This document shows, one piece after another, positions 3,201-57,766 of a stretch of DNA of 64,000 bases. The DNA is from Candidatus Methylomirabilota bacterium. GTDB taxonomy: Bacteria > Methylomirabilota > Methylomirabilia > Rokubacteriales > DASRDR01. A model generated the notes under the pieces. It worked only from the letters and a program-made list of their open reading frames with translations. It ran no database searches and was not told the origin of the DNA. The stretch's first letter is position 1. The number at the start of each line of letters is the position of its first letter. The stretch is taken from assembly GCA_036005065.1 (NCBI GenBank), contig DASYQW010000161.1, forward strand, positions 2,898-66,897, in the 5' to 3' direction. The position numbers and the translations under genes are program-made.

Positions 3201-3353
3201 TTCGAGCGGGACCGCGCGGCGATCGTCCACGAAGCCTTCCTGCTGGTCGAAGGGATGCTGCAGCACCAGGAGGGCGTCACGTCCGTCCGGGCGACCGCCG
3301 TGCGGCCGCTTCCCCCATTCCCGGCCGCCGTTCCCTCCCACGACTTTCACTAG
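249..3353 (+). CDS. dnaE2: Error-prone DNA polymerase DnaE2 (PHP domain plus Pol III alpha core, ~1034 aa)
   Basis: N-terminus MTPYVELHAQSAFSFLEAAASPERL is the PHP domain start typical of DnaE2/ImuC; size and organisation fit Pol III alpha without the tau/beta-binding C-terminal extension. ORF-track frame 48..3353; ATG at 249 preferred over upstream in-frame starts because it places the PHP motif at the N-terminus. Confidence 0.85.
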   Translation: MTPYVELHAQSAFSFLEAAASPERLAEQAAGLGYPALALLDADGIYGAPRFYRAASELGLRALVGAELTLTGGARLPVLVETPEGYRRLCRLLTRVKLRAAKGKARATLDDLEGETAGLVCLTGGADGPLAADLLAGRRDAARGTLERLARLFGREQVYVELQRHGTRESELRTRRLGELARDRRPPCVATNGVRYAMPGERVVLDVFTALRYRTTLDAAGRRLEPNVERWLKPPSEMARLFADRPDALAETAELAARCAFTLKDLGYRFPDFPVPDGGSPIAYLRALSETGARERYRRVGERVRRQLDRELDLIEKLDLAGYFLIVWDIVRECRARGILVQGRGSAANSAVCYSLGITAVDPVGMDLLFERFLSEERHEWPDIDLDLPSGDRREAVIQYVYQRYGQTGAGMTANVITYRPRRAAREVGKVLGFPLEILDRLSKHVSDWEYQDPADTPARHLARVGLDPAHPRVRRFAEVWAAVQGLPRHLGQHSGGMVLCAGRLDEVVPLETATMPGRVVVQWDKDDCADMGIVKVDLLGLGMMAVLEDALVLCREAGHEVDLAHLPPDDPPVYAALQAADTVGVFQVESRAQMATLPRLRPERFYDLVVEVAIIRPGPIVGDMVHPYLARRAGRAPVSYPHPSLEPILKRTLGVPLFQEQLLRMAMVAAGFTGGEAEELRRALGFRRSEARMKAVEAKLRTGIARNGITGEAAEEIVRSITSFAEYGFPESHAASFALLAYASAYLKVHYPAQFYAALLNNQPMGFYHPATLVKDAQRHGQEVRPVDATRSDWLSTVEDGAVRLGLMTVKGLREAAGRRLVAARRERAFDSVDDVVARSTLARDELTRLADIGALECLGLTRRGALWEAERAARPPGPLWVGHRPAPDPSPLAEMTVEERVVADYRGTGLTVGPHPMALRRAELRRLGVTAAAGLAGVPDGEPVRIAGGVIVRQRPGTAKGFVFLSLEDETGIANAIVRPAIFERDRAAIVHEAFLLVEGMLQHQEGVTSVRATAVRPLPPFPAAVPSHDFH

Positions 3354-3485
3354 GTCATTTCGGGGGGGGCTCGGAAGACCCCCCCGATGCCCCCCCGGCG
3401 TGGCGGCGGCAAAGCCGTCGCTCGGAGCACTCCTCGATGAACCGCGCGCTCGGTGGTCGGCGCCGGATTACTCCGACAGACTCCT
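3351..3485 (+). repeat. Double-hairpin intergenic repeat, subfamily 1, copy A (begins at the TAG stop of dnaE2)
   Basis: CACTAGGTCATTTCGGGGGGGGCTCGGAAGACCCCCCCGATGCCCCCCCGGCGTGGCGGCGGCAAAGCCGTCGCTCGGAGCACTCCTCGATGAACCGCGCGCTCGGTGGTCGGCGCCGGATTACTCCGACAGACTCC. Near-identical inverted copy at ~39135-39269. G8/C7 stem-loop followed by GGCGGCGGC-AAA-GCCGTCGC stem-loop. Confidence 0.6.
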
Positions 3486-3540: not shown

Positions 3541-3570
3541 TTGACGTCTCGGAGGGGCGCCGGGTAGACT
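3541..3570 (+). promoter_or_regulatory. Candidate sigma-70 promoter for phnDCE (TTGACG -18 bp- TAGACT)
   Basis: TTGACG at 3541-3546 and TAGACT at 3565-3570, ~85 bp upstream of the phnD ATG. GGAGGAGG RBS at 3641-3648. Confidence 0.3.
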
Positions 3571-3654
3571 GACGCTCGAGGCTCGCGGGAGGCCCCAGGG
3601 CGCCGTACCGCGAGCCGCGGCGCGGCGTTTTTCGTGGCACGGAGGAGGACTCCG

Positions 3655-7479: not shown

Positions 7480-8448
7480 ATGGAGAGCAAGGGCAAGGCG
7501 TTCCGCGAGCTCCTGCGGGAGGAGCCGCACGTGTTCACCGGCGGCATCTACTCACCGCTCGACGCGCAGATCGCCGAACGGGTCGGGATGAAGGCGATCT
7601 ACATGAGCGGCTACTCGGTGGCCATGCTGAACGGGTGGCCGGACATGGGGTTCCTCACGATGACCGAGATGACCCGGACGGCCTCGATGATCGCCAGCGC
7701 CGTCGCCATCCCGATCATCGCCGACGCCGACGATGGCTACGGATCGGCGCTCAACACCATGCGAACCGTCGCCGAGTTCGTGAAGACGGGTGTGGCCGGC
7801 ATCCATCTGGAGGACCAGCAGTACCCGAAACGCTGCGGGCACATCGCCGGGAAGACGGTCGTGTCGCGCCCGGAGGCGATCGGGAAGTTCCGGGCCGCGG
7901 TGGCCGAGCGTGATCGCCTGGATCGCGACTTCGTGCTGATCGCGCGGACCGATGCCTACGGGGCGGTCGGCGGGAGCATGGAAGAGGCGATCGCGCGGAG
8001 TCGCGCGTACGCCGACGTGGGGGTGGATCTCGTCTGGTGCGAGCTCTCGAAGTCGGAGCGCCGGCCGGCCGAGGTCTTCGCCGAGGCCATGCGGAAGAGT
8101 CATCCCGATCTGCCGCTGGCGTTCAACTACTCCTCCTCGTTCAAGTGGCACGCGGACCCCGCTCCCCTGACGTTCCGGGAGTTGGGCGAGCTCGGCTATA
8201 AGTTCATCTTCATCACGCTGTTCGGTGCCCACGCGGCGATGTATGGCGTCTGGAACGCCATGGAGGACCTGGTCAAGAACCAGGAGGCCGCCCAGTGGTC
8301 GCTCGAGAAGTTGAAGAGCGGGCACCCGACCGAGAGCCACCACGTCATGGCCCGGGTCGCGCACTTCCAGGAGATCGAGCGCCGCTTCGTGCCGGGGGCC
8401 GCCGACCGCCACCAGGCGTCCGCCGGCTTCGGCGAGGGCGGGCACTAG
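7480..8448 (+). CDS. Isocitrate lyase / PEP mutase superfamily enzyme (ICL/methylisocitrate-lyase-like, 322 aa)
   Basis: Active-site motif EDQQYPKRCGHIAGKTVV matches the K(K/R)CGH lyase signature, followed by FVLIARTDA. Shorter than canonical ICL (~430 aa), closer to PrpB size. Confidence 0.8.
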   Translation: MESKGKAFRELLREEPHVFTGGIYSPLDAQIAERVGMKAIYMSGYSVAMLNGWPDMGFLTMTEMTRTASMIASAVAIPIIADADDGYGSALNTMRTVAEFVKTGVAGIHLEDQQYPKRCGHIAGKTVVSRPEAIGKFRAAVAERDRLDRDFVLIARTDAYGAVGGSMEEAIARSRAYADVGVDLVWCELSKSERRPAEVFAEAMRKSHPDLPLAFNYSSSFKWHADPAPLTFRELGELGYKFIFITLFGAHAAMYGVWNAMEDLVKNQEAAQWSLEKLKSGHPTESHHVMARVAHFQEIERRFVPGAADRHQASAGFGEGGH

Positions 8449-8500
8449 GTCATTTTCGGGGGAAGCCTCGGGGAACCCCCTGAGGCCCCCGGTGCCGTCG
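8446..8500 (+). repeat. Truncated copy (B) of the double-hairpin repeat, starting at the TAG stop of the ICL-family gene
   Basis: CACTAGGTCATTTTCGGGGGAAGCCTCGGGGAACCCCCTGAGGCCCCCGG shares the CACTAGGTCATTT head and the G-run/C-run hairpin with copy A. Confidence 0.4.
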
Positions 8501-8657: not shown

Positions 8658-11018
8658 ATGATCCGCGAGGACATTCTCCAGAAGTTCCCCGAGCTCTTCG
8701 GGACCAAGACGGTGAACGGCCGAGAAGTCAACGTCGAACAGGCGATTGCCACACTCACCGGAGAGCTCGGTCCCGAGATCGCCGCGGCCCTCACCGCGCG
8801 CCGGGCGCTCCTGCAGTCCCCCGCGCCGGTCCGCGAGAAATATGCCTGGCCCAAGTGGGACGACACGTTCGAGGATCCCGTCACGGGGCGGTTCTGGACG
8901 TTTCGCCAGATCGTCCAGGGCCTGATCGACAACGCTCTCGGTCGGGACAGCGAGTGGCGCTGGCGGCTCAACGACGAGGTGCCCATCCCGCCGGGCGCCC
9001 ACCCGTTGACGAATCCCGGCCTGGAGCTGACCGGGCCGTGGCATCCGCTGGACATGGCCTTCAACGCGTTGAACAGCCCGGCGCCCATGAACATGCCGGA
9101 CTTCGAGGACGCCTCCCCGCCCCATTTTCAGCCCGATGGCACACCCACGAATCAGCCGGTGGGGATCTTCGCAGCCATGCAGAACGCCAAAGAGATTTTC
9201 GAGGGCCGCTGGGCCGGCCGCCCCTACGAGGTGGTGAAGAAAGGCCAAGCGCGCGCGTACACGATCAAAACGTCCCCGGCGCAGTGGCCGACCCGGTTTG
9301 CGCGGCCTCCCGGCATCCACGTGCGGTACGACCACGTTCGGGTCGACGGCCACCCGGTGCCCGGGGTGATTCCCATCACCCTCCTCTGGGCCCTCAACAA
9401 CTATGGGTCTCTCACCCAGGCTGGCACCGGCGTGTATTTCTACATCCCGAAGATCCAGACCCCCCGGGAAGCCCTCGTCGTGGAGAAGCTCCTGGCGCGG
9501 CTGGAAGGCATGATCGGTGTCCAGCCCGGCACCATCAAGATCAAAGTCCTCTACGAGGAGGGGAATGCGGGCCGGTTCTTGCCGGCGATCGCCTGGGTCT
9601 TGCGGCGCCGGCTCCTCGGGACGAACGTCGGCCGCTGGGACTACCTGGCCAGTCTCATCGAGATGTGGAAGGACGACCCGCACGGCGTCTTTCCGGATCC
9701 GCAGTCGATCGGCATGGCCTCCCCGAACATGATCGCGTATCAGCGGTATAACGCGCTGGTGATGCTCATGGCCGGCATGAAGAGCGGCGAGCTCAGCCAC
9801 GGGGCCCCCATCGGCGGGATGGCGGCAGTCATGATCTACCCACCCACCGACCCCTATGGCCGCTCGAAGTACAACCCCCTGGCCCTGCGGGCGATGGTCA
9901 TCGACAAGCTGCGCGAGCGCCTGTTGGGTCTCGTGTTCATGCCCGAGGAGCCGCTGCCCGCCGGTCAGCCCCCCACCCTCGAGGACATCTTGGCCGGCCG
10001 AGTGAAGGGTCGGCTGTATGATGCCTATCGGCAGAGCTGGGTCGCCAGCCCGGAACCGACTTACGTCGCCGCTGGCAATGCCCCGTTGCGGGCTCCCGTG
10101 GCGGAGCTCCAGGGGATCCTCGATGCGTCGCCAGAGACGGTGGACGTGAAAGGCCACCCGGTGCCGACGGTGGCCAGTGGGCTGGTTGACGCGGAGCGGC
10201 TCCTGCTGCAGTCCCGCGGCTTGTTGAACCCGAAGGGCGCGATCACGCCCTGGGTCATCACCAAGGACATGTTCAGCACGCCGGAGAACCTCTTCACGCC
10301 AGAACTGTGGGACAGCATCTACGGGGTGCCGAAGGGTGAGATCACCATCGAGCACATTCAACACGCGTTCTACATGGCGGCGAACTATGGCTTCCAGATT
10401 CTCAATGGGAACTTCGCGGCCGCCATCGACGACTACGAGCTGTTCCTGCGGTTCATGAATGACCTCGCCACTTACCGGATCGATGTGTCCTGGCTGTGGA
10501 GCCTCGTGCATCACGAGGCCGCCATCACCAAGGCCGGCTCCCTCAAACGGCCCGCGCTGACCGAGGATGGGGTCGTGCCGGCGGTGAACGCTTTCCAGGT
10601 CAAGGCCGGGACCCGCTTCACCAAGGAGCTGTTCGAGAAGCTGTGGGACTACCACAACGAATGGACGGCGGCATTCTTCGCCGAGCTGGACCACCGCGGC
10701 GATCCCGGCCGCTTCGACCGCGCCAAGGCGCCCCTCATCATGGAGCTCTTGAAGCGGCAGCTCTCGTCGCCCCGCTACATCCAGCACAGCGCCCGCGTGC
10801 TCTTCGTCGTGGGGCAGGCGAACGAGCCGGAGCGCGCGCAGATCCTCGAGGCGATCTTCGACCTCTCCCGCGAGGAGATCGTCAAGCGCATTCACGCCGG
10901 CACCCTGAACACGATCGCGCTGGGCGCTCACGACTATATCTATGACATCTTTCCGGGCATCGAAGGAGACGAGCGCCCGGCGGTGAGATCAGAGACCTTG
11001 GCCTCCGCCAGAACGTGA
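8658..11018 (+). CDS. Malate synthase family protein, divergent (786 aa)
   Basis: Contains LLGTNVGRWDYLASL, matching the malate synthase LNCGRWDY(I/L)FS core motif. GAGGAGG RBS before the ATG. Longer than MSA (~530 aa) and MSG (~720 aa) and otherwise poorly alignable by eye. Confidence 0.55.
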   Translation: MIREDILQKFPELFGTKTVNGREVNVEQAIATLTGELGPEIAAALTARRALLQSPAPVREKYAWPKWDDTFEDPVTGRFWTFRQIVQGLIDNALGRDSEWRWRLNDEVPIPPGAHPLTNPGLELTGPWHPLDMAFNALNSPAPMNMPDFEDASPPHFQPDGTPTNQPVGIFAAMQNAKEIFEGRWAGRPYEVVKKGQARAYTIKTSPAQWPTRFARPPGIHVRYDHVRVDGHPVPGVIPITLLWALNNYGSLTQAGTGVYFYIPKIQTPREALVVEKLLARLEGMIGVQPGTIKIKVLYEEGNAGRFLPAIAWVLRRRLLGTNVGRWDYLASLIEMWKDDPHGVFPDPQSIGMASPNMIAYQRYNALVMLMAGMKSGELSHGAPIGGMAAVMIYPPTDPYGRSKYNPLALRAMVIDKLRERLLGLVFMPEEPLPAGQPPTLEDILAGRVKGRLYDAYRQSWVASPEPTYVAAGNAPLRAPVAELQGILDASPETVDVKGHPVPTVASGLVDAERLLLQSRGLLNPKGAITPWVITKDMFSTPENLFTPELWDSIYGVPKGEITIEHIQHAFYMAANYGFQILNGNFAAAIDDYELFLRFMNDLATYRIDVSWLWSLVHHEAAITKAGSLKRPALTEDGVVPAVNAFQVKAGTRFTKELFEKLWDYHNEWTAAFFAELDHRGDPGRFDRAKAPLIMELLKRQLSSPRYIQHSARVLFVVGQANEPERAQILEAIFDLSREEIVKRIHAGTLNTIALGAHDYIYDIFPGIEGDERPAVRSETLASART

Positions 11019-13232: not shown

Positions 13233-14654
13233 GTGGCCACGACCGTCCTCATGCCGCACATGGGCGAGTCCATCGTGGAGGGCAAGGTGCTCCGGTGGGT
13301 CCGCCGCGAAGGCCAGGCCGTGCAGAAGAACGAGACCATCGCGGAAGTCGAGACGGACAAGGCCGACGTCGAGATCCCGGCGCCCACCGACGGCGTGCTG
13401 GCCAAGATCCTCGTGCCCGAGGGCGCGACCGCCGCGGTCGGCGCCGAGCTGGCGGTGATCGAGCCGGCGGGCGCGGCGGAGGTCCGAACGGCCGAGCCGC
13501 CGCGGCCGGCGCCGGCCGCCCGGCGGCCCGCCGCGCCCGAGGCCGCTGAGCCCGAGGCCGCTGAGCCCGCGGCCGCCGCCCCCGCCCGCCCGGCCGCGCC
13601 CGCGCCGCGACCCGTCCCGGCCCGGCCGGCCGAGGCCGCGCGACCACCGCACGCGACGCCGGACGAGGGCGAGCCGGCCCCGACCGGGCGGCGGGTGATC
13701 AGCCCGGTCGTGGCCAAGCTCATGGAGCAGCACGAGCTGACGCTGGCCGACCTGGAGCGGGTCGAGGGCAGCGGGCTCGGGGGGCGCGTGACGAAGCAGG
13801 ACCTGCTGGCCCATCTCGAACGCCGCCAGGCGCGTGCCGCCGCGCCCGAGCGGCCGCCGCCGGACAGCCGCGCCCGTGTCGGGCCCGAGCCGCGACCAGC
13901 GCCGGCGGGGCCGGCCCGGCCGGCCCCGGCGGAAGCCCGGCCGTCGGGCGCGACCGAGGACGAGCCGGTCGAGGTCGTCCCGCTGGAGGGCCTTCGCAAG
14001 GCGATCGCCGAGCACATGGTCGCCTCGGTGCGCACGGCGCCGCACGTCACCACGGTGGCCGAGGTCGACGTGACCGAGCTGGTCCGCTTCCGCGCGTATT
14101 ACAAGGCCCGCTTCGAGAGCGAGGTGGGGGCCCCGCTCACCTATCTGCCGTTCATCGTGCGGGCGCTGCTGGCCGGGCTCCGGGCCTTTCCCATGCTCAA
14201 CAGCTCGCTGGAGGGCGAGCGCATCCTGGTCCGCCGCTACTACCACATCGGCGTGGCGGTGGCCGCCCCGGAAGGGCTCCTGGTCCCGGTCCTCCGGCAC
14301 GCCGACCGACTCTCGGTGCGGGAGCTGGCGCGGGCGATCCACGACCTCGTGGAGCGGGCCCGGGTGCGGAGGCTCCGACCCGAGGAGCTGGGCGGGGGGA
14401 CGTTCAGCGTGACCAACCCGGGGGTCTTCGGCGGGGTCCTCTCGACCCCGATCATCCACCAGCCTCAGGCAGCCATCCTGGGCGTCCAGGCGATCCGCAC
14501 GCAGCCGGCCGTCCGCGACGGCCAGATCGTGCCGCGGGAGCTCATGTACCTCTGTCTCTCCTACGACCACCGCATCGTGGACGGCGCCACGGCCGTCCAG
14601 TTCCTTCAGCATCTCCGAGCCGATCTCGAGCATCCGCTGGCGCTCTTGATCTGA
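13233..14654 (+). CDS. Dihydrolipoamide acyltransferase E2 component
   Basis: Lipoyl domain (EGKVLRWVRREGQAVQKNETIAEVETDKADVEIPAP), Ala/Pro linker, E1/E3-binding domain, and a catalytic domain with DHRIVDGA. GTG start at 13233 (alternative ATG at 13251). Confidence 0.85.
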   Translation: MATTVLMPHMGESIVEGKVLRWVRREGQAVQKNETIAEVETDKADVEIPAPTDGVLAKILVPEGATAAVGAELAVIEPAGAAEVRTAEPPRPAPAARRPAAPEAAEPEAAEPAAAAPARPAAPAPRPVPARPAEAARPPHATPDEGEPAPTGRRVISPVVAKLMEQHELTLADLERVEGSGLGGRVTKQDLLAHLERRQARAAAPERPPPDSRARVGPEPRPAPAGPARPAPAEARPSGATEDEPVEVVPLEGLRKAIAEHMVASVRTAPHVTTVAEVDVTELVRFRAYYKARFESEVGAPLTYLPFIVRALLAGLRAFPMLNSSLEGERILVRRYYHIGVAVAAPEGLLVPVLRHADRLSVRELARAIHDLVERARVRRLRPEELGGGTFSVTNPGVFGGVLSTPIIHQPQAAILGVQAIRTQPAVRDGQIVPRELMYLCLSYDHRIVDGATAVQFLQHLRADLEHPLALLI

Positions 14655-17642: not shown

Positions 17643-18877
17643 CCGGGTCCGCCCCGCCGCGCCGCGACGACGCCGTCGACCATGCCCGCCAGGAGCGCCG
17701 CGGCGCGGGCGGCCCCACCCGTATCGAGGCGGGCCGGGGCGGGAAGGTCCGGCGCGGCGAGCGCGGCCTCCATCGCGGCGGCGAGCCGGGCCGGGCCGAG
17801 CTCCGATTCCGGGACCACCGTGAGCCGCCCGCGGGCGGCGAGGAGTCGAGCCCGGAGCGGTTGCTCGTCACCGCTTCCCTCGAAGGGCACCACGACGGCC
17901 CGGACGCCGCTCTGGAGGACGTCGAGCACGGTGTTGTATCCCGCCTGGCTGATCGAGAGCGCAGCCCCGCGCAGGAGCGCCGGGAAGTCGTCGCGGAAGC
18001 GCTCCACGACGACCCCGGGCCGGCCCGCCTGGGGCGGAAGGGCGGCCGCCTCCGCGGCGAGCTCGGCCTGGACGTCGGCGGGCAGGTAGGGCCCGGTGAT
18101 GAGGCGCCAGGGCAGCGCGGCGGCCGCGGGAGCGAGGGCCCGTGCCGCCAGTGCCGCGCGGAAGAGCGGGCCCGCCACGCGCCCGCCGCCTCCCGACACC
18201 ACGACTTCGCCCCGGGGTGTCGCCTCGCCGGGCGGGGCGGGGTCCGGCACCACGTACCCCGTGTAAACCAGCCGGTCGGCCAGGGCGCCGGCCAGGCCGA
18301 AGGTGCGGTCGAGCGGGATCAGATCGGGACTCCCGTGCACGAGGACGCGGTCCACCCACTGCATGATCACGGCCACGACGCTCAGCTCGTACCACGACGG
18401 GTTCTTCTTGCTCACCACGATGTCGCGCACACTGACCGCCACTCGCGGAGCCGCGTCGCCGCGTCGAGCCCGATCGGCGGCGAGCTGGAGGAGCAGGGGG
18501 CCGAGCTCGAAGGCCAGGGCGTGACGACCGAAGGGGAACAGCTCGAGCAGCACGATCGCGGGATCGTGCCGGACGAGCAGCGCCAGGAGCGCCGCGCGCC
18601 GCTCGGCGAGGTACCGCGCGTCCGGCGGGCGCCCGTCGGGCCGCGCGATGGTGCTGGCCGCCTCGTCGGCGGCGGCGAGGGGCGGAAGCGCGACGGGCTC
18701 GACGCCGCCGAGCTCGAGGCCGGGCACCGGCAGGCCGCCGGTCACGAACAGGACGTGCTCGCCGCGCTTCGCGAGCGCGCGGGCGAGGAGGGCCGCCCGC
18801 TGCACGTGGCCGAGGCCCAGCAAGTGCTGACAGTGGAGAAGGATCGGCGGTCGCGCCACGGCGCCCCGGGCGGTCAC
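17639..18877 (-). CDS. Glycosyltransferase (MGT/GT28-like, GT-B fold)
   Basis: N-terminal CQHLLGLGHVQRAALLARAL motif, shared with the 21948..23228 paralogue (SFGLGHLRRCRAIAHAL). GTG start overlaps the histidine phosphatase stop. Confidence 0.65.
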   Translation of the reverse strand: MTARGAVARPPILLHCQHLLGLGHVQRAALLARALAKRGEHVLFVTGGLPVPGLELGGVEPVALPPLAAADEAASTIARPDGRPPDARYLAERRAALLALLVRHDPAIVLLELFPFGRHALAFELGPLLLQLAADRARRGDAAPRVAVSVRDIVVSKKNPSWYELSVVAVIMQWVDRVLVHGSPDLIPLDRTFGLAGALADRLVYTGYVVPDPAPPGEATPRGEVVVSGGGGRVAGPLFRAALAARALAPAAAALPWRLITGPYLPADVQAELAAEAAALPPQAGRPGVVVERFRDDFPALLRGAALSISQAGYNTVLDVLQSGVRAVVVPFEGSGDEQPLRARLLAARGRLTVVPESELGPARLAAAMEAALAAPDLPAPARLDTGGAARAAALLAGMVDGVVAARRGGPG

Positions 18878-32472: not shown

Positions 32473-32925
32473 ATGCAGCCGCTAGAACGAGACGTCGAGA
32501 CCCTGCGCAACATCCCCCTGTTCGCCGGCCTGCCGACGGCGCGGCTCAAGCTCATCGCCTACACGGCCGAAGTCGTACGCTTCGAGCCCGGCGAGGTGAT
32601 CGTGCAGCAAGGCGACGCGGCCGATGCCGTGTACATCATCGCCGAGGGCGAGGCCGAGGTGTGGCTCACCGACGCCGACAGCCACCGCCTGCTCCTGCGG
32701 ACCATGGGGCCCCACAGCCTGTTCGGGGAGACGGCCGTGCTGTGCAAGCGGCGACGGACGGCCACCGTGAAGGCCAAGGATCGCGTGGTGACATTCAAGA
32801 TCTCGGCCCAGCTGTTCCTCGACCTCGTGCGCCAGAGCCCGGAGATCGGGATGCAGGTGATGACGGTGCTGGCCGAGCGCCTGGAGAGCAGCACCGCCCT
32901 CTTGCAGCAGCACGACCGCCACTGA
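32473..32925 (+). CDS. Standalone cyclic-nucleotide-binding (cNMP/CAP effector) domain protein, 150 aa, no DNA-binding domain
   Basis: LRNIPLFAGLP…FEPGEVIVQQGD…FGETAVL…RRTATVKA. Its start lies 13 nt after the ABC gene stop. Confidence 0.8.
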   Translation: MQPLERDVETLRNIPLFAGLPTARLKLIAYTAEVVRFEPGEVIVQQGDAADAVYIIAEGEAEVWLTDADSHRLLLRTMGPHSLFGETAVLCKRRRTATVKAKDRVVTFKISAQLFLDLVRQSPEIGMQVMTVLAERLESSTALLQQHDRH

Positions 32926-33010
32926 GTGAGTTTCGGAGGGGGTGTCGGAACACCCCCTCCGAGGCCTCCCCCAAGAATCGTGGCGGCGGCAAAGCCGCCG
33001 CTCGGAGCGG
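32923..33010 (+). repeat. Double-hairpin intergenic repeat, subfamily 2, copy C (begins at the TGA stop of the cNMP-binding gene)
   Basis: TGAGTGAGTTTCGGAGGGGGTGTCGGAACACCCCCTCCGAGGCCTCCCCCAAGAATCGTGGCGGCGGCAAAGCCGCCGCTCGGAGCGGGACATCC. Perfect 12-bp stem CGGAGGGGGTGT/ACACCCCCTCCG plus a GGCGGCGGC-AAA-GCCGCCGC stem. Confidence 0.55.
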
Positions 33011-33150
33011 GACATCCAGGCCGCCGCGTGCTCGAGCGAGCGCGAGGGCCGTGCTGAGTTCAACCGGAGGCTCCGCGGTGGCGACTCCGTCGGCGGCCGC
33101 CTCTCCTGGGCCGGGTGTGGGAGGGAGCCGTGGGGACTCCCTCGCGGGAT

Positions 33151-36952: not shown

Positions 36953-37432
36953 ATGGGATCCCGACAATGGGCGATGGAACACCGGAAGCGGATCGCCCTG
37001 GTGGCGCACGACAACAAGAAGCATGATCTGCTGGAATGGGCGGCCTTCAACCGAGAGCTCCTGGCTCGACACGAGCTGTACGCGACCGCCACCACCGGGA
37101 CCCTCCTCCGGCAAGAGCTCGAACTCGAAGTCATCTCGCTGCAGAGCGGACCGCTCGGCGGTGACCAGCAGATCGGCGGGAAGATCGCGGAGGGCGCGGT
37201 CGACTTCTTGATCTTCTTCTGGGATCCTCTCAAACCACAGCCCCACGATCCCGATGTGAAGGCTCTCCTGCGGATCGCGGTGGTATGGAACATTCCCGTC
37301 GCGTGCAACCGAGCGTCGGCGGATTTCATGATCTCGTCGCCGCTGATGTCGGCGGGCTACCAGCGTCTTCTTCCCGACTACGGGGATCCGCATAAAGCGG
37401 TCGCCGATCCGAGTTCCTCCGGCTCTCGCTAG
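36953..37432 (+). CDS. mgsA: Methylglyoxal synthase
   Basis: [17 protein letters not shown]…[11 protein letters not shown]…[11 protein letters not shown]…LIFFWDPL…[24 protein letters not shown] before the ATG. Confidence 0.85.
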
Positions 37433-37641
37433 AAGCCTGTCGGGTGGAGCGCGGGCAGCGTGATGCCCAAACGCTGGCGTATGGGGGCCCACTCAGAGCG
37501 CGGGCTTTGCCCGCGGGCCCACCCACGGAAGCCCGAGAGGTGGGGGGAGGTTCGAGAGGGGGCCGTCGAGGCCCCCTCACTGCAAGAATTGCGGCGCGGC
37601 CCCGGACGCCGAACTGGTCCACCCGCTCGGCCGGAGGGCTG

Positions 37642-38793: not shown

Positions 38794-39134
38794 GCACGGA
38801 CCGCTACGATGCGCGCCACACGACCCCGTGGAACGACCACGGCAAGCGCCCAGGAGCGCCGTCGACTGCAGGATTTGCGGTCGCAGATGGCGGTGCGGGC
38901 GCCACGACCGTGCAATCCGCAACCGGCACGCGCGAGTAGCGCGTTTGGTACGCCCGGTGCTTGCCTGATCTCTGGTGGTGGCACTGGCGGTGGGGCGAGG
39001 ATGGGCTCGTCGCGGTTCCCAGGGCACGTTCCCGCCGGAGTGCCGGGGTGCTACAGTGCGGGGGATGAGGAAGTGCCGCTGCCGAACCTGCTTTCCGCCC
39101 CACGGGCCCTGGGGCGGTTCCCGGGAGGCGGTCT

Positions 39135-39269
39135 AGTGTGTCCGAGTAATCCGACGCCGACCACCAAGCGCGTGGTGCATCGAGAGGCGCTCCGCGCGGC
39201 GGCTGTGCCGCCGCCACCGAGGGGGGGCATCGGGGGGGTCTTCCGAGACCCCCCCGAAAAGACCTAGCC
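39135..39269 (-). repeat. Double-hairpin intergenic repeat, subfamily 1, copy D (inverted relative to copy A), ending immediately before the histidine-kinase ATG
   Basis: The reverse complement is GGGCTAGGTCTTTTCGGGGGGGTCTCGGAAGACCCCCCCGATGCCCCCCCTCGGTGGCGGCGGCACAGCCGCCGCGCGGAGCGCCTCTCGATGCACCACGCGCTTGGTGGTCGGCGTCGGATTACTCGGACACAC, ~90% identical to copy A over ~135 bp. Confidence 0.6.
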
Positions 39270-47486: not shown

Positions 47487-47890
<404 letters not shown>

Positions 47891-47954
47891 TGGCGCCGAC
47901 GAACCATTATACCGCGAGGCGCAGGAAGGAACCGTCGCGGCCCCTTCCGAGAAC

Positions 47955-48668: not shown

Positions 48669-48744
48669 TGGTGGGCCCACCCGGACTCGAACCAGGACCC
48701 GACCGGTTATGAGCCGGTGGCTCTGCCAGTTGAGCTATGGGCCC
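48669..48744 (-). tRNA. tRNA-Met (anticodon CAT), elongator-like (could also be tRNA-Ile2 with lysidine)
   Basis: The reverse complement GGGCCCATAGCTCAACTGGCAGAGCCACCGGCTCATAACCGGTCGGGTCCTGGTTCGAGTCCGGGTGGGCCCACCA folds as a cloverleaf: 7-bp acceptor, D-stem GCTC/GAGC, anticodon loop CTCATAA, T-arm CCTGG-TTCGAGT-CCGGG, encoded CCA. G1-C72 and no GGG/CCC in the anticodon stem argue against an initiator tRNA. Confidence 0.85.
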
Positions 48745-54900: not shown

Positions 54901-55095
54901 TCAGTCCGAGTATCGCTCCCGCCGCTTGGCTTTCTTGCGTGCCGCCAGCGCCTTGCGCTTCCGCCGAACGCTGGGCTTCTCGTAGTGCTGGCGCTTCTTG
55001 AGCTCGGAGAGAAGGCCGGCCTTCTCGCACTGCTTCTTGAAGCGTTTGAGCGCGCTCTCGAAGGACTCGTCTGGTTCTACGATGACCTTCGTCAA
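54901..55095 (-). CDS. rpsU: 30S ribosomal protein S21
   Basis: …[62 protein letters not shown] start at 55095 with an AAGGGGGG RBS gives 64 aa; the upstream ATG at 55173 would add 26 non-conserved residues. Confidence 0.7.
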
Positions 55096-55244
55096 CTCGC
55101 GGTTCCCCCCTTCCCTCCGACGCTCGACCGGATAAACGTTTAGTTTATACCACAATCCCCCCACCCTGTCCATTGCGGGACACCCGGATCTCAGCCCTTG
55201 GTGGGAAAGCCTCTCGGCGAAGGGGGCGCGCCCTCATGCGTGAC

Positions 55245-55345
55245 CGCCGACCACCCGCATGGTCGCTCCGAGCAGCGGCTTTTGTCGCCGCCACGATTCC
55301 TGGGGGAGGCTTCGGAGGGGGTGTTCCAACACCCCTCCGATCTCT
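55245..55345 (-). repeat. Double-hairpin intergenic repeat, subfamily 2, copy E (inverted), beginning at the TGA stop of pth
   Basis: The reverse complement TGAGAGATCGGAGGGGTGTTGGAACACCCCCTCCGAAGCCTCCCCCAGGAATCGTGGCGGCGACAAAAGCCGCTGCTCGGAGCGACCATGC is collinear with copy C. Confidence 0.5.
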
Positions 55346-55899
55346 CACGCGTCCCGCGCCGGCGGGGAGGCCGCCAGCCGGAGCACCGCGTCCGCGGCCT
55401 GCTCGAGGATGACCGGGAGCGCCTCTCGCTCGGCCGAGTCGAAGCCGGCCAGCACCCAGTCGACCACTTCGTCCTTGGTGTCGGGTCGGCCAACGCCCAC
55501 CTTGACCCGCCGGAATCCCTCGGTGCCGAGGGCGTCGATGAGCGAGCGCACCCCATTGTGCCCGCCATGGCGACCCTTGTGGCGAATGCGCACCCGGCCG
55601 AACGGAAGGTCGATGTCGTCGTGGACCACGATCAGGGTCGTCGGGTCGAGCCCGAGGTCGCGGAGGAGCCGCGCCACCCCCGGCCCGACGACGTTCATGA
55701 AGGTGACGGGCTTGGCGAGATGGAGCGGCGCGCCGTTCCACGTCGTCTCCGCGAGGACGGCCGGCCCCCGGAGTCGAAAGCGACCACCCAACCGCTGGGC
55801 CAGGCGATCGAGGACCGCCTGGCCCACGTTGTGCCGCGTGTCCTGGTAGGCCGGGCCCGGATTGCCGAGGCCGACGACCAGCTGCGGAACCGACGGCAC
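55345..55899 (-). CDS. pth: Peptidyl-tRNA hydrolase
   Basis: LVVGLGNPGPAY…RHNVGQ…HDDIDLPFGRVRIRHKGRHGGHNG. Confidence 0.85.
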   Translation of the reverse strand: MPSVPQLVVGLGNPGPAYQDTRHNVGQAVLDRLAQRLGGRFRLRGPAVLAETTWNGAPLHLAKPVTFMNVVGPGVARLLRDLGLDPTTLIVVHDDIDLPFGRVRIRHKGRHGGHNGVRSLIDALGTEGFRRVKVGVGRPDTKDEVVDWVLAGFDSAEREALPVILEQAADAVLRLAASPPARDA

Positions 55900-57691: not shown

Positions 57692-57766
57692 TGGTTGGGG
57701 CGGCAGGATTCGAACCTGCGAATACGGGATCCAAAGTCCCGCGCCTTACCGCTTGGCCACGCCCCA
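57692..57766 (-). tRNA. tRNA-Gln (anticodon TTG)
   Basis: The reverse complement TGGGGCGTGGCCAAGCGGTAAGGCGCGGGACTTTGGATCCCGTATTCGCAGGTTCGAATCCTGCCGCCCCAACCA has U1-A72, anticodon loop CUUUGGA, T-arm GCAGG-TTCGAAT-CCTGC and an encoded CCA. It closely resembles canonical bacterial tRNA-Gln. Confidence 0.85.

Follow-up and report, generated by a model that had tools for sequence, protein, structure and literature searches.

The 64-kb window analysed here (the whole stretch of 64,000 nucleotides, positions 2,898 to 66,897 of contig DASYQW010000161.1 from the Candidatus Methylomirabilota bacterium assembly GCA_036005065.1) carries about 50 open reading frames (ORFs), mostly housekeeping genes, between which a GC-rich, double-hairpin repeat element recurs. 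We counted six copies of this element, A to F, scored them with two covariance models (R1 and R2), and re-derived the coordinates of the full copies to include a shared tail (Table 1). The initial annotation had reported five copies in two subfamilies; the repeats proved real, and the count missed copy F, which was found by descriptor search. Copy A lies in sense orientation between dnaE2 and a gene for a PhnD/NMT1-like binding protein that has its own promoter, and copy B, likewise in sense, between an ICL/PEP-mutase-like gene and a malate-synthase-like gene. Based on Pfam annotation of the window, copies C and E are also sense to their upstream genes, while D and F are antisense. Copy D was correctly recognized from the outset as abutting a gene start. 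We found no credible ORF in its spacer: an ORF at 38809-39267 (+) that ends at the CTAG of copy D was dropped for its non-coding composition (GC2 0.69, GC3 0.72). The part of this spacer between cdaA and copy D (38794-39132) comprises a further 340 nt of apparently non-coding DNA, with no credible ORF, Rfam match or identifiable repeat.

The copies are related in sequence well beyond their base composition. Identity between copies A and D is 87% across 133 nt, close to the value of about 90% over some 135 bp first estimated. For copies C and E it is 93% across 55 nt, and both covariance models align them over about 80 nt; their assignment to a second subfamily sharing the core module thus held, although their ends had been placed about 60 nt short of the shared tail. 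A 29-nt core, GTGGCGGCGGCAAAGCCGCCGCTCGGAGC, recurs with at most two mismatches in A, C, and D and never in 100 shuffled sequences, and in copy E the core differs by two substitutions and an insertion of 1 nt. Copies A, B, and D carry the head CTAGGTCATTT, for which 0.09 occurrences would be expected. Copy F is a divergent full copy recovered by R2 with an E-value of 1.6e-6, and its second hairpin carries compensatory changes. Copy B, initially described as a truncated copy, shares with copy A the head, first hairpin, and C-run only (local alignment score 75.5 versus 39 +/- 6 for shuffles, maximum 65); it has neither an intact second hairpin nor an intact CGGAGC, and it is detected by neither R1 nor R2. 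A candidate tail of copy B at GGTCCGGCGTATGCT was discarded, as this sequence downstream of the copy belongs to the conserved promoter region of the malate-synthase-like gene and is present in the related loci L016 and L017 too.

All full copies have the same order of parts, namely the head, a first hairpin (H1), a C-rich linker, a second hairpin (H2), the motif CGGAGCG, a variable stretch of 40-60 nt, and the tail, spanning 133-155 nt in total (about 250 nt in the copy L010a, owing to an internal insert). H1 is a near-perfect palindrome of 23-28 nt with a G-run in its 5' arm and a C-run in its 3' arm, 9-12 bp long and often closed by a CGGA loop; in copy C the loop is CGGA and not the CGGAA originally given. 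The linker reads GCCYCCCCC, followed in some copies by GGGGAGG, which is able to pair with it. H2 takes the form GGCGGCGGC-AAA-GCCGCCGC or the co-varying forms GCGCCGGC/GCCGGCGC and CGCGGGC/GCCCGCG. The tail conforms to CYCCGACAGRCT, with a shared motif CCGAsAGRCT (CCGACAGRCT), and CTCCGACAGRCT is a gapped inverse of the head (GTC..CGGAG); this short, gapped correspondence (head GTC(N2-4)CGGRG versus tail CYCCGAC) is the only inverse match between the ends. The head motif lies 1-9 nt from the H1 stem and comes in two main types, CTAGGTC (A, B, D, L010a, and L017a) and GTGAG (C, E, F, and L007, with the heads of E and L007 sharing CGCGTGAG); L004a has GTAG at this position, and other copies have CTAA or ATAG.

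The hairpins are conserved as structures. In covariation tests on a structure-blind MAFFT alignment of 13 copies, with 500 shuffles, and on a model-fitted alignment, which gave a similar outcome, 89-92% of the alignment cells were paired (89% on the MAFFT alignment), with double changes in 6-8 pairs of H1 (six on the MAFFT alignment) and two pairs of H2. Neither the paired fraction nor the covariation score was equalled in any of the 500 shuffles, and pairing dropped to about 50% when the registers were slid. The sense and antisense strands fold about equally well (mean difference -0.65 kcal/mol); we accordingly dropped the idea of a strand-specific, RNA-level structure. A scan for hairpins followed by T-runs found no T-run after any element hairpin, and the same scan retrieved a canonical terminator downstream of copy A (Table 1). 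No reading frame is conserved among the copies; a small-peptide gene was likewise set aside, since the ATG in the linker of the A-type copies leads into frames that differ among A, D, L005, and L001, and the C-type copies lack it. At gathering score, Rfam 15 matched only RNase P and two tRNAs in the window and nothing in the element, and permissive Rfam searches of A, C, and the F-D region gave sub-threshold noise alone.

Table 1. Copies of the element and other features of the window (positions within the window; H1 and H2, first and second hairpin; scores in bits with covariance models R1 and R2 unless stated)
Feature	Positions	Strand	Site	Parts	Score
Copy A (A-type)	3350-3482	+	directly 3' of dnaE2 stop	head CTAGGTCATTT 3350-3360 (CTAG at 3350; TAG within head is the dnaE2 stop); H1 3361-3386; C-run 3387-3396; H2 3402-3421; CGGAGC 3423-3428; tail GGATTACTCCGACAGACT 3465-3482	R1 81; R2 79
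Copy B (partial or decayed A-type)	8445-8497	+	directly 3' of stop of ICL/PEP-mutase-like gene	head CTAGGTCATTTT 8445-8456 (CTAG at 8445); nested G/C hairpin 8457-8491, then short C-run	
Copy C (GTGAG-head type)	32923-33074	+	3' of stop of cNMP-binding-domain gene, convergent with globin gene	head TGAGTGAGTTT 32923-32933; H1 32934-32961; C-run 32962-32972; H2 32982-33001, then CGGAGCG; tail TTCAACCGGAGGCTCC 33059-33074	R1 99.6; R2 89.9; folding z-score -5.3
Copy F (divergent full copy)	37429-37580	-	antisense to neighbours; between stop of MGS-like gene (36953-37432, +) and cdaA (likely ATG near 37639)	head GTGAG 37576-37580; H1 37556-37578; C-run 37542-37552; H2 CGCGGGC-AAA-GCCCGCG 37499-37515; CTCTGAGTGG 37489-37498; tail CCACCCGACAGGCTT plus CTAG 37429-37447 (CTAG 37429-37432 contains the MGS-like gene stop)	R2 54.4
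Copy D (A-type)	39133-39267	-	antisense to neighbours, within 477-nt non-coding spacer; head 3 nt from ATG 39271 of PAS/histidine-kinase gene, cdaA on 3' side of spacer	H1 39231-39256; H2 39196-39215; tail 39137-39152; CTAG at both ends, head 39264-39267 and tail 39133-39136	R1 84.9; R2 80.8
Copy E (GTGAG-head type)	55206-55347	-	between pth (55345-55899, -) and conserved rpsU promoter	head (CG)CGTGAGAGAT, holding the pth stop TGA; H1 55313-55339; H2 55272-55292; tail TTCGCCGAGAGGCTTT 55206-55221	R1 81; R2 71
Element-like hairpin, sub-threshold	33068-33149	-	directly after globin stop		R2 18.7
PhnD/NMT1-like gene leader	3541-3633		3' of copy A	promoter TTGACG-18-TAGACT 3541-3570; hairpin-plus-TTTTT terminator 3608-3626	
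rpsU promoter and leader	55095-55160			TGGACAGGGTGGGGGGAYTGTGNTATAAACTAAACGTTT...GGAGGGAAGGGGGGA	
RNase P RNA, class A	47493-47891	-			287 bits
tRNA gene	48672-48744	-			
tRNA gene	57695-57766	-			

Scans with the core pattern together with R1 and R2 in related DNA recovered eight more full copies beyond the window and one in L014 that is cut by the contig end (candidates for full copies outside the window being L001, L004a, L004b, L005, L007, L008, L010a, L010b, and L017a); the sample comprises 14 full copies and about 243 kb of related DNA, and these copies score 47-90 bits with R2. Every outside copy resides on a high-G+C contig (0.68-0.74): L001, L014, and L017 come from Rokubacteria-type metagenome-assembled genomes (MAGs), with L001 and L017 labelled as such, L010 is syntenic with the window, and L004, L005, L007, and L008 are metagenome contigs. 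Pth and DnaE2 of the window match Methylomirabilota MAG proteins at NCBI with 100% identity. The density is patchy, with six copies in the 64-kb window, two in the 20 kb of L010, and two in the 9 kb of L004, and with L011, L018, and L019 devoid of copies and L012 and L016 without any that reaches the R2 hit threshold. Exact-pattern scans with the H2 core yielded one true match in genome contigs, eight matches in metagenome contigs (four true and four chance matches in coding DNA), and none in viral contigs; such scans under-sample the family because H2 co-varies. Weaker element-like hairpins were also seen directly after other stop codons, namely a sub-threshold one after the globin stop in the window (Table 1), another after the ICL stop in L016 (18631-18706, -; 24 bits), and a weak one after the cNMP-gene stop in L014 (about 18700-18740, -; CGGAGGCC-GGC-GGCCTCCGACAGCT); they may represent copies in decay or solo units. 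Intergenic spacers of two Rokubacteria-type genomes (L014 about 7850-7900 and L017 about 13320-13370) also share another short repeat, unrelated to the element, that contains CTAG (GAGACCCGAGCAGCCCTAGGAC).

The placement of the copies is strongly tied to stop codons and to the tetranucleotide CTAG. As the initial annotation stated, A, B, C, and E begin at stop codons, a sense-strand stop lying 1-9 nt before H1 in each of them, as it does in six of eight full copies elsewhere. Altogether, a stop on the same strand precedes the start by no more than 10 nt in 10 of the 14 full copies, where chance would give about 3% (P ~ 1e-12), and the remaining four, D, F, L005, and L010a, are antisense to their neighbours, an orientation bias of 10:4 that is not significant (P = 0.09). 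The stop triplet is kept in the head even where no sense ORF lies upstream (CTAG in D and L010a, GTGAG in F). CTAG occurs only 10 times in the window, and five of these occurrences are element ends (Table 1), a coincidence affecting 5 of 12 element ends with a chance probability of P ~ 6e-11; of the other five, four are in coding sequence and one is intergenic. Only three genes of the window end in a C-TAG stop (dnaE2, the ICL-like gene, and the MGS-like gene), and all three bear an element end. The stop abutment of the CTAG-head subfamily can consequently be explained without an RNA function: its copies sit at stops because the target is available essentially only at C-TAG stops, and, CTAG being palindromic, the gene may be faced by the head, as in A and B, or by the tail, as in F and L010a.

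Four syntenic comparisons of filled and empty sites reveal insertion polymorphism. The pth-rpsU spacer is filled by copy E in the window and empty in L010, L012, L013, and L014, where it measures 46-64 nt. In these element-free relatives pth is 10 codons longer and extends into the conserved rpsU promoter (TGGACA-17-TATAAA), from which it follows that the TGA stop of the window pth lies inside the inserted segment, which may run on to about 55165. This promoter and its leader are also found in L010 (10535-10625), L012 (10532-10625), and L014 (about 9300-9400), and in the element-free relatives the pth coding sequence overlaps the promoter and ends inside its -10 box. In L011 (10540-10700) the same spacer is occupied by another insert, about 150 nt long, that has an H2-like hairpin (GCGGCGCGGCGAAACCGCCGCGC) as well as TTCGGAGCGCGGAGCC. 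This insert lacks the H1/linker architecture and is undetected by R1 and R2; it may be a distant or rearranged relative of the element. Between prs and the L25 gene, L010b lies in L010 between a TAG stop and the L25 Shine-Dalgarno sequence, whereas the window and L011 have spacers of 13-15 nt and L012 is also empty. Between L25 and pth, L010a is inserted antisense in L010, and the window, L011, and L012 are empty; L014 is empty at this site as well and carries unrelated repeats between prs and L25. An element occupies the dnaE2 stop in the window (copy A) and in L017 (L017a), both reading CAC TAG GTCA, while L016, L018, and L019 are empty and read CAC TGA at the same codon, such that a TAG stop accompanies the element in two of two genomes and a TGA stop its absence in three of three.

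Three copies are bounded by direct repeats. L010a is flanked on both sides by GCGCTAG, where the empty sites have a single TAGCGC; L017a is flanked on both sides by CCACTAG (7 nt), and D on both sides by CTAG. At A, F, C, E, and others a duplication is absent or decayed, and the short matches CTGAGT and TGAGA flanking C and E were not used, being too short to tell from chance. The repeat around L017a also bears on the claim that the element supplies the stop codon of its upstream gene. That claim stands for copy E only, given the longer pth of its element-free relatives; it does not hold for copy A, as the empty orthologues carry TGA at the same codon. Because CCACTAG is duplicated around L017a at this very site, the TAG at dnaE2 is probably a pre-existing target and not a contribution of the element. 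Further, A and L017a, at one site in two genomes, belong to different subtypes, whereas A and D, in one genome, are 87% identical.

[quoted passage not shown] This agrees with the first of two interpretations offered initially, a miniature mobile element at gene 3' ends, in view of the site polymorphism, flanking repeats, within-genome similarity, and presence in both orientations. Under such a model, a transposase encoded elsewhere in the genome would place the element in CTAG-like sites and duplicate a short stretch of the target. As nearly all CTAG tolerated in a genome of 70% G+C would be C-TAG stops, copies would gather at gene ends. The GTGAG-head subfamily, carrying its own TGA, would insert just inside the 3' end of a gene and cause a harmless truncation, as in pth, and the hairpins may be kept through a need of the transposition machinery or of the host. 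As a side effect, the stable hairpin would probably alter how translation of the upstream gene terminates and how stable the 3' end of its mRNA is, by analogy with the REPs of E. coli; we propose an effect on termination because a terminating ribosome must melt a hairpin placed 1-9 nt past the stop.

Several observations weigh against this interpretation. No transposase, RAYT (the tyrosine transposase associated with REPs), or integrase gene was found among the window ORFs or the called genes of the related loci L010-L019. The terminal inverted repeats are weak and gapped. A clear flanking duplication is present in only 3 of about 10 full copies, its length (4 versus 7 nt) and distance from the tail motif vary, and the GTGAG-head copies C, E, and L007 have no convincing one. 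The sample is small (the 14 full copies in about 243 kb) and was partly gathered with a pattern or model derived from the window. A structure under selection, whether in RNA or DNA, would also agree with the covariation and the mild sense bias, and the similarity of copies within a genome could reflect gene conversion between them rather than recent transposition. A further-reaching version of the same idea, which we offer only tentatively, is that this is a new type of element for which the stop codon would itself be the landing site: it would insert at C-TAG and duplicate 7 nt, with one subfamily bringing its own TGA, and its transposase would belong to a family so far without known targets of this kind. 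In these high-G+C genomes such an element would systematically set or reset gene 3' ends and place a hairpin close to the ribosome there, and it might be a mobile, perhaps domesticated, module of translation termination or of the 3'-UTR (3' untranslated region).

Part of the same evidence can be accommodated by supposing that the element is a selected cis-acting structure of the transcript, a 3'-UTR module acting as a transcriptional stop, as protection of the mRNA 3' end, or as a brake on ribosome release at the stop codon, which would have been kept for that function and have spread through recombination, not transposition. H1 follows a stop closely in most of the full copies, both hairpins show compensatory changes, and different-looking copies occupy one dnaE2 site in two genomes. 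Moreover, A, B, C, and E mark the ends of transcription units, since the promoter of the next gene (A, B, and E) or a convergent gene (C) follows. A precedent exists in Escherichia coli, where, according to PMC12306157 (citing Liang, Rudd and Deutscher 2015), ribosomes stall, with the involvement of tmRNA, and expression is lowered when a REP lies no more than 15 nt from a stop; these REPs, as that source describes them, resemble the element in placing a stable hairpin a few nucleotides past the stop and in having a large fraction of the family so positioned, and differ from it in their unrelated sequences and in that the effect was tested only in E. coli, while for the element it is inferred. 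Yet a terminator or 3'-UTR RNA family, the second interpretation offered initially, is not supported as the main explanation: T-runs are missing after both hairpins, in contrast to a canonical terminator nearby, both strands fold equally well, four of the 14 full copies are antisense to their neighbours, no Rfam family matches, the same sites are element-free in close relatives, and the CTAG flanks and 7-nt duplications are left unexplained. We regard it as unlikely in this form, and a role in the transcript is compatible with a secondary, co-opted function of a mobile element.

Another candidate is a REP/REPIN-type repeat moved by a RAYT, an HUH tyrosine transposase, with H1 and its tag as the REP unit and the whole as a REPIN- or BIME-like composite. 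GTAG- and CGTC-tagged REPs/REPINs (PMC3733652) are likewise short, GC-rich extragenic palindromes with a conserved tag beside the stem, dispersed, variable between related genomes, and often touching or overlapping coding regions, and the ends of GTAG REPs frequently supply a TAG stop codon (Di Nocera et al. 2013, PMC3733652). The element matches them in being a multi-copy, extragenic, GC-rich palindrome (all copies are intergenic, six in 64 kb), in having a nearby CTAG, GTAG (L004a), or GTGAG tag, in overlapping stops, in the existence of a solo head-plus-hairpin unit (copy B), and in the lack of strand asymmetry of its palindromes. Its departures lie in the sequence and position of the tag, which is CTAG or GTGAG, not GTAG or CGTC, and sits 1-9 nt from the stem; in its composite build of 133-155 nt, whose H1 and H2 are unrelated and hence not two inverted copies of one palindrome, plus a tail; and in the flanking direct repeats of D, L010a, and L017a. 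HUH transposition, as in the IS200/IS605 and RAYT families, is not known to leave a target duplication. No Y1-transposase domain was found in the window, and we consider this derivation quite improbable. That the copies are ordinary, independent terminator hairpins or chance similarities in a 70% G+C genome, the alternative against which the initial annotation was set, is extremely improbable: GC-rich hairpins are common in such genomes and several unrelated ones exist in the window, but neither the A/D identity, nor the recurrence of the core against none expected, nor the ordered architecture of 14 copies at their R2 scores, nor the missing T-runs fits it. Integron attC sites were rejected too, as the neighbours are unrelated housekeeping genes in conserved synteny and not cassette arrays.

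Returning to a non-autonomous mobile element, close structural parallels are bacterial MITEs (Correia elements, ERIC, and elements derived from insertion sequences [IS]; reviewed in PMC10969869), which like it measure about 100-300 nt, are non-coding, multi-copy, and structured, vary in their presence at insertion sites (here at four syntenic sites), make short target-site duplications (clear here in three copies, at 4 or 7 nt ending in CTAG), and lie in transcribed intergenic DNA; unlike them, the element has no clear terminal inverted repeats and no known parent IS. Its target preference is shared by several insertion sequences. The rare CTAG is preferred, and a short duplication containing it is left, by IS630 (CTAG, duplicating TA), the IS5 group (YTAR, 4 bp), and IS481/IS1002 (NCTAGN, 6 bp), and the duplications (4 and 7 nt) and ends of the element appear to fit none of these; no such transposase was found among the genes of the window or the called genes of the related loci. 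Since membership of the REP/REPIN group fails on three points and that of the MITEs is incomplete, we place the element as a new family within the general class of small dispersed extragenic repeats and not as a new class. In agreement with the initial view that it is not a described family, it has no Rfam match and we found no published description of it, nor anything relevant on repeats in Rokubacteria or Methylomirabilota. Repeats that supply a TAG (PMC3733652) and repeats that lie close to stops (PMC12306157) have already been described for REPs.

Other features of these loci are worth recording. The leader of the PhnD/NMT1-like gene downstream of copy A combines a promoter with a hairpin-plus-TTTTT terminator (Table 1); in the orthologous region of L016 (13612-13731) a TPP riboswitch aptamer (Rfam TPP, 60.8 bits) lies between the promoter and the terminator, and in L017 the version is interrupted and contains an internal duplication. 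The window leader, which has no aptamer, appears to be a riboswitch remnant from which the aptamer was deleted. Many close DnaE2 homologues of 1174-1458 aa contain an intein (Pfam Intein_splicing; a LAGLIDADG domain may be present or absent; P0126-P0129 and P0136-P0139; L018 10001-13540), which is missing from the window DnaE2 (1034 aa as called at NCBI), and in relatives dnaE2 is preceded by the usual RecA_N-like/IMS (imuA-imuB-like) mutagenesis cassette. The neighbourhood of the RNase P RNA and two tRNA genes is also found in the syntenic L010.

The element adds a dispersed-repeat family to a large, uncultured phylum of soil and groundwater in which we found none described. It also offers a simple account of why repeats abut stops in a G+C-rich genome, where CTAG is tolerated almost only as a C-TAG stop. 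In practical terms, the covariance model can be used for annotating these MAGs and the element as a strain-typing marker, and gene callers should be alert to spurious ORFs running through elements and to gene ends altered by them, as in pth. Should a hairpin this close to the stop influence termination as REPs do in E. coli, the family would amount to a widespread device for tuning expression.

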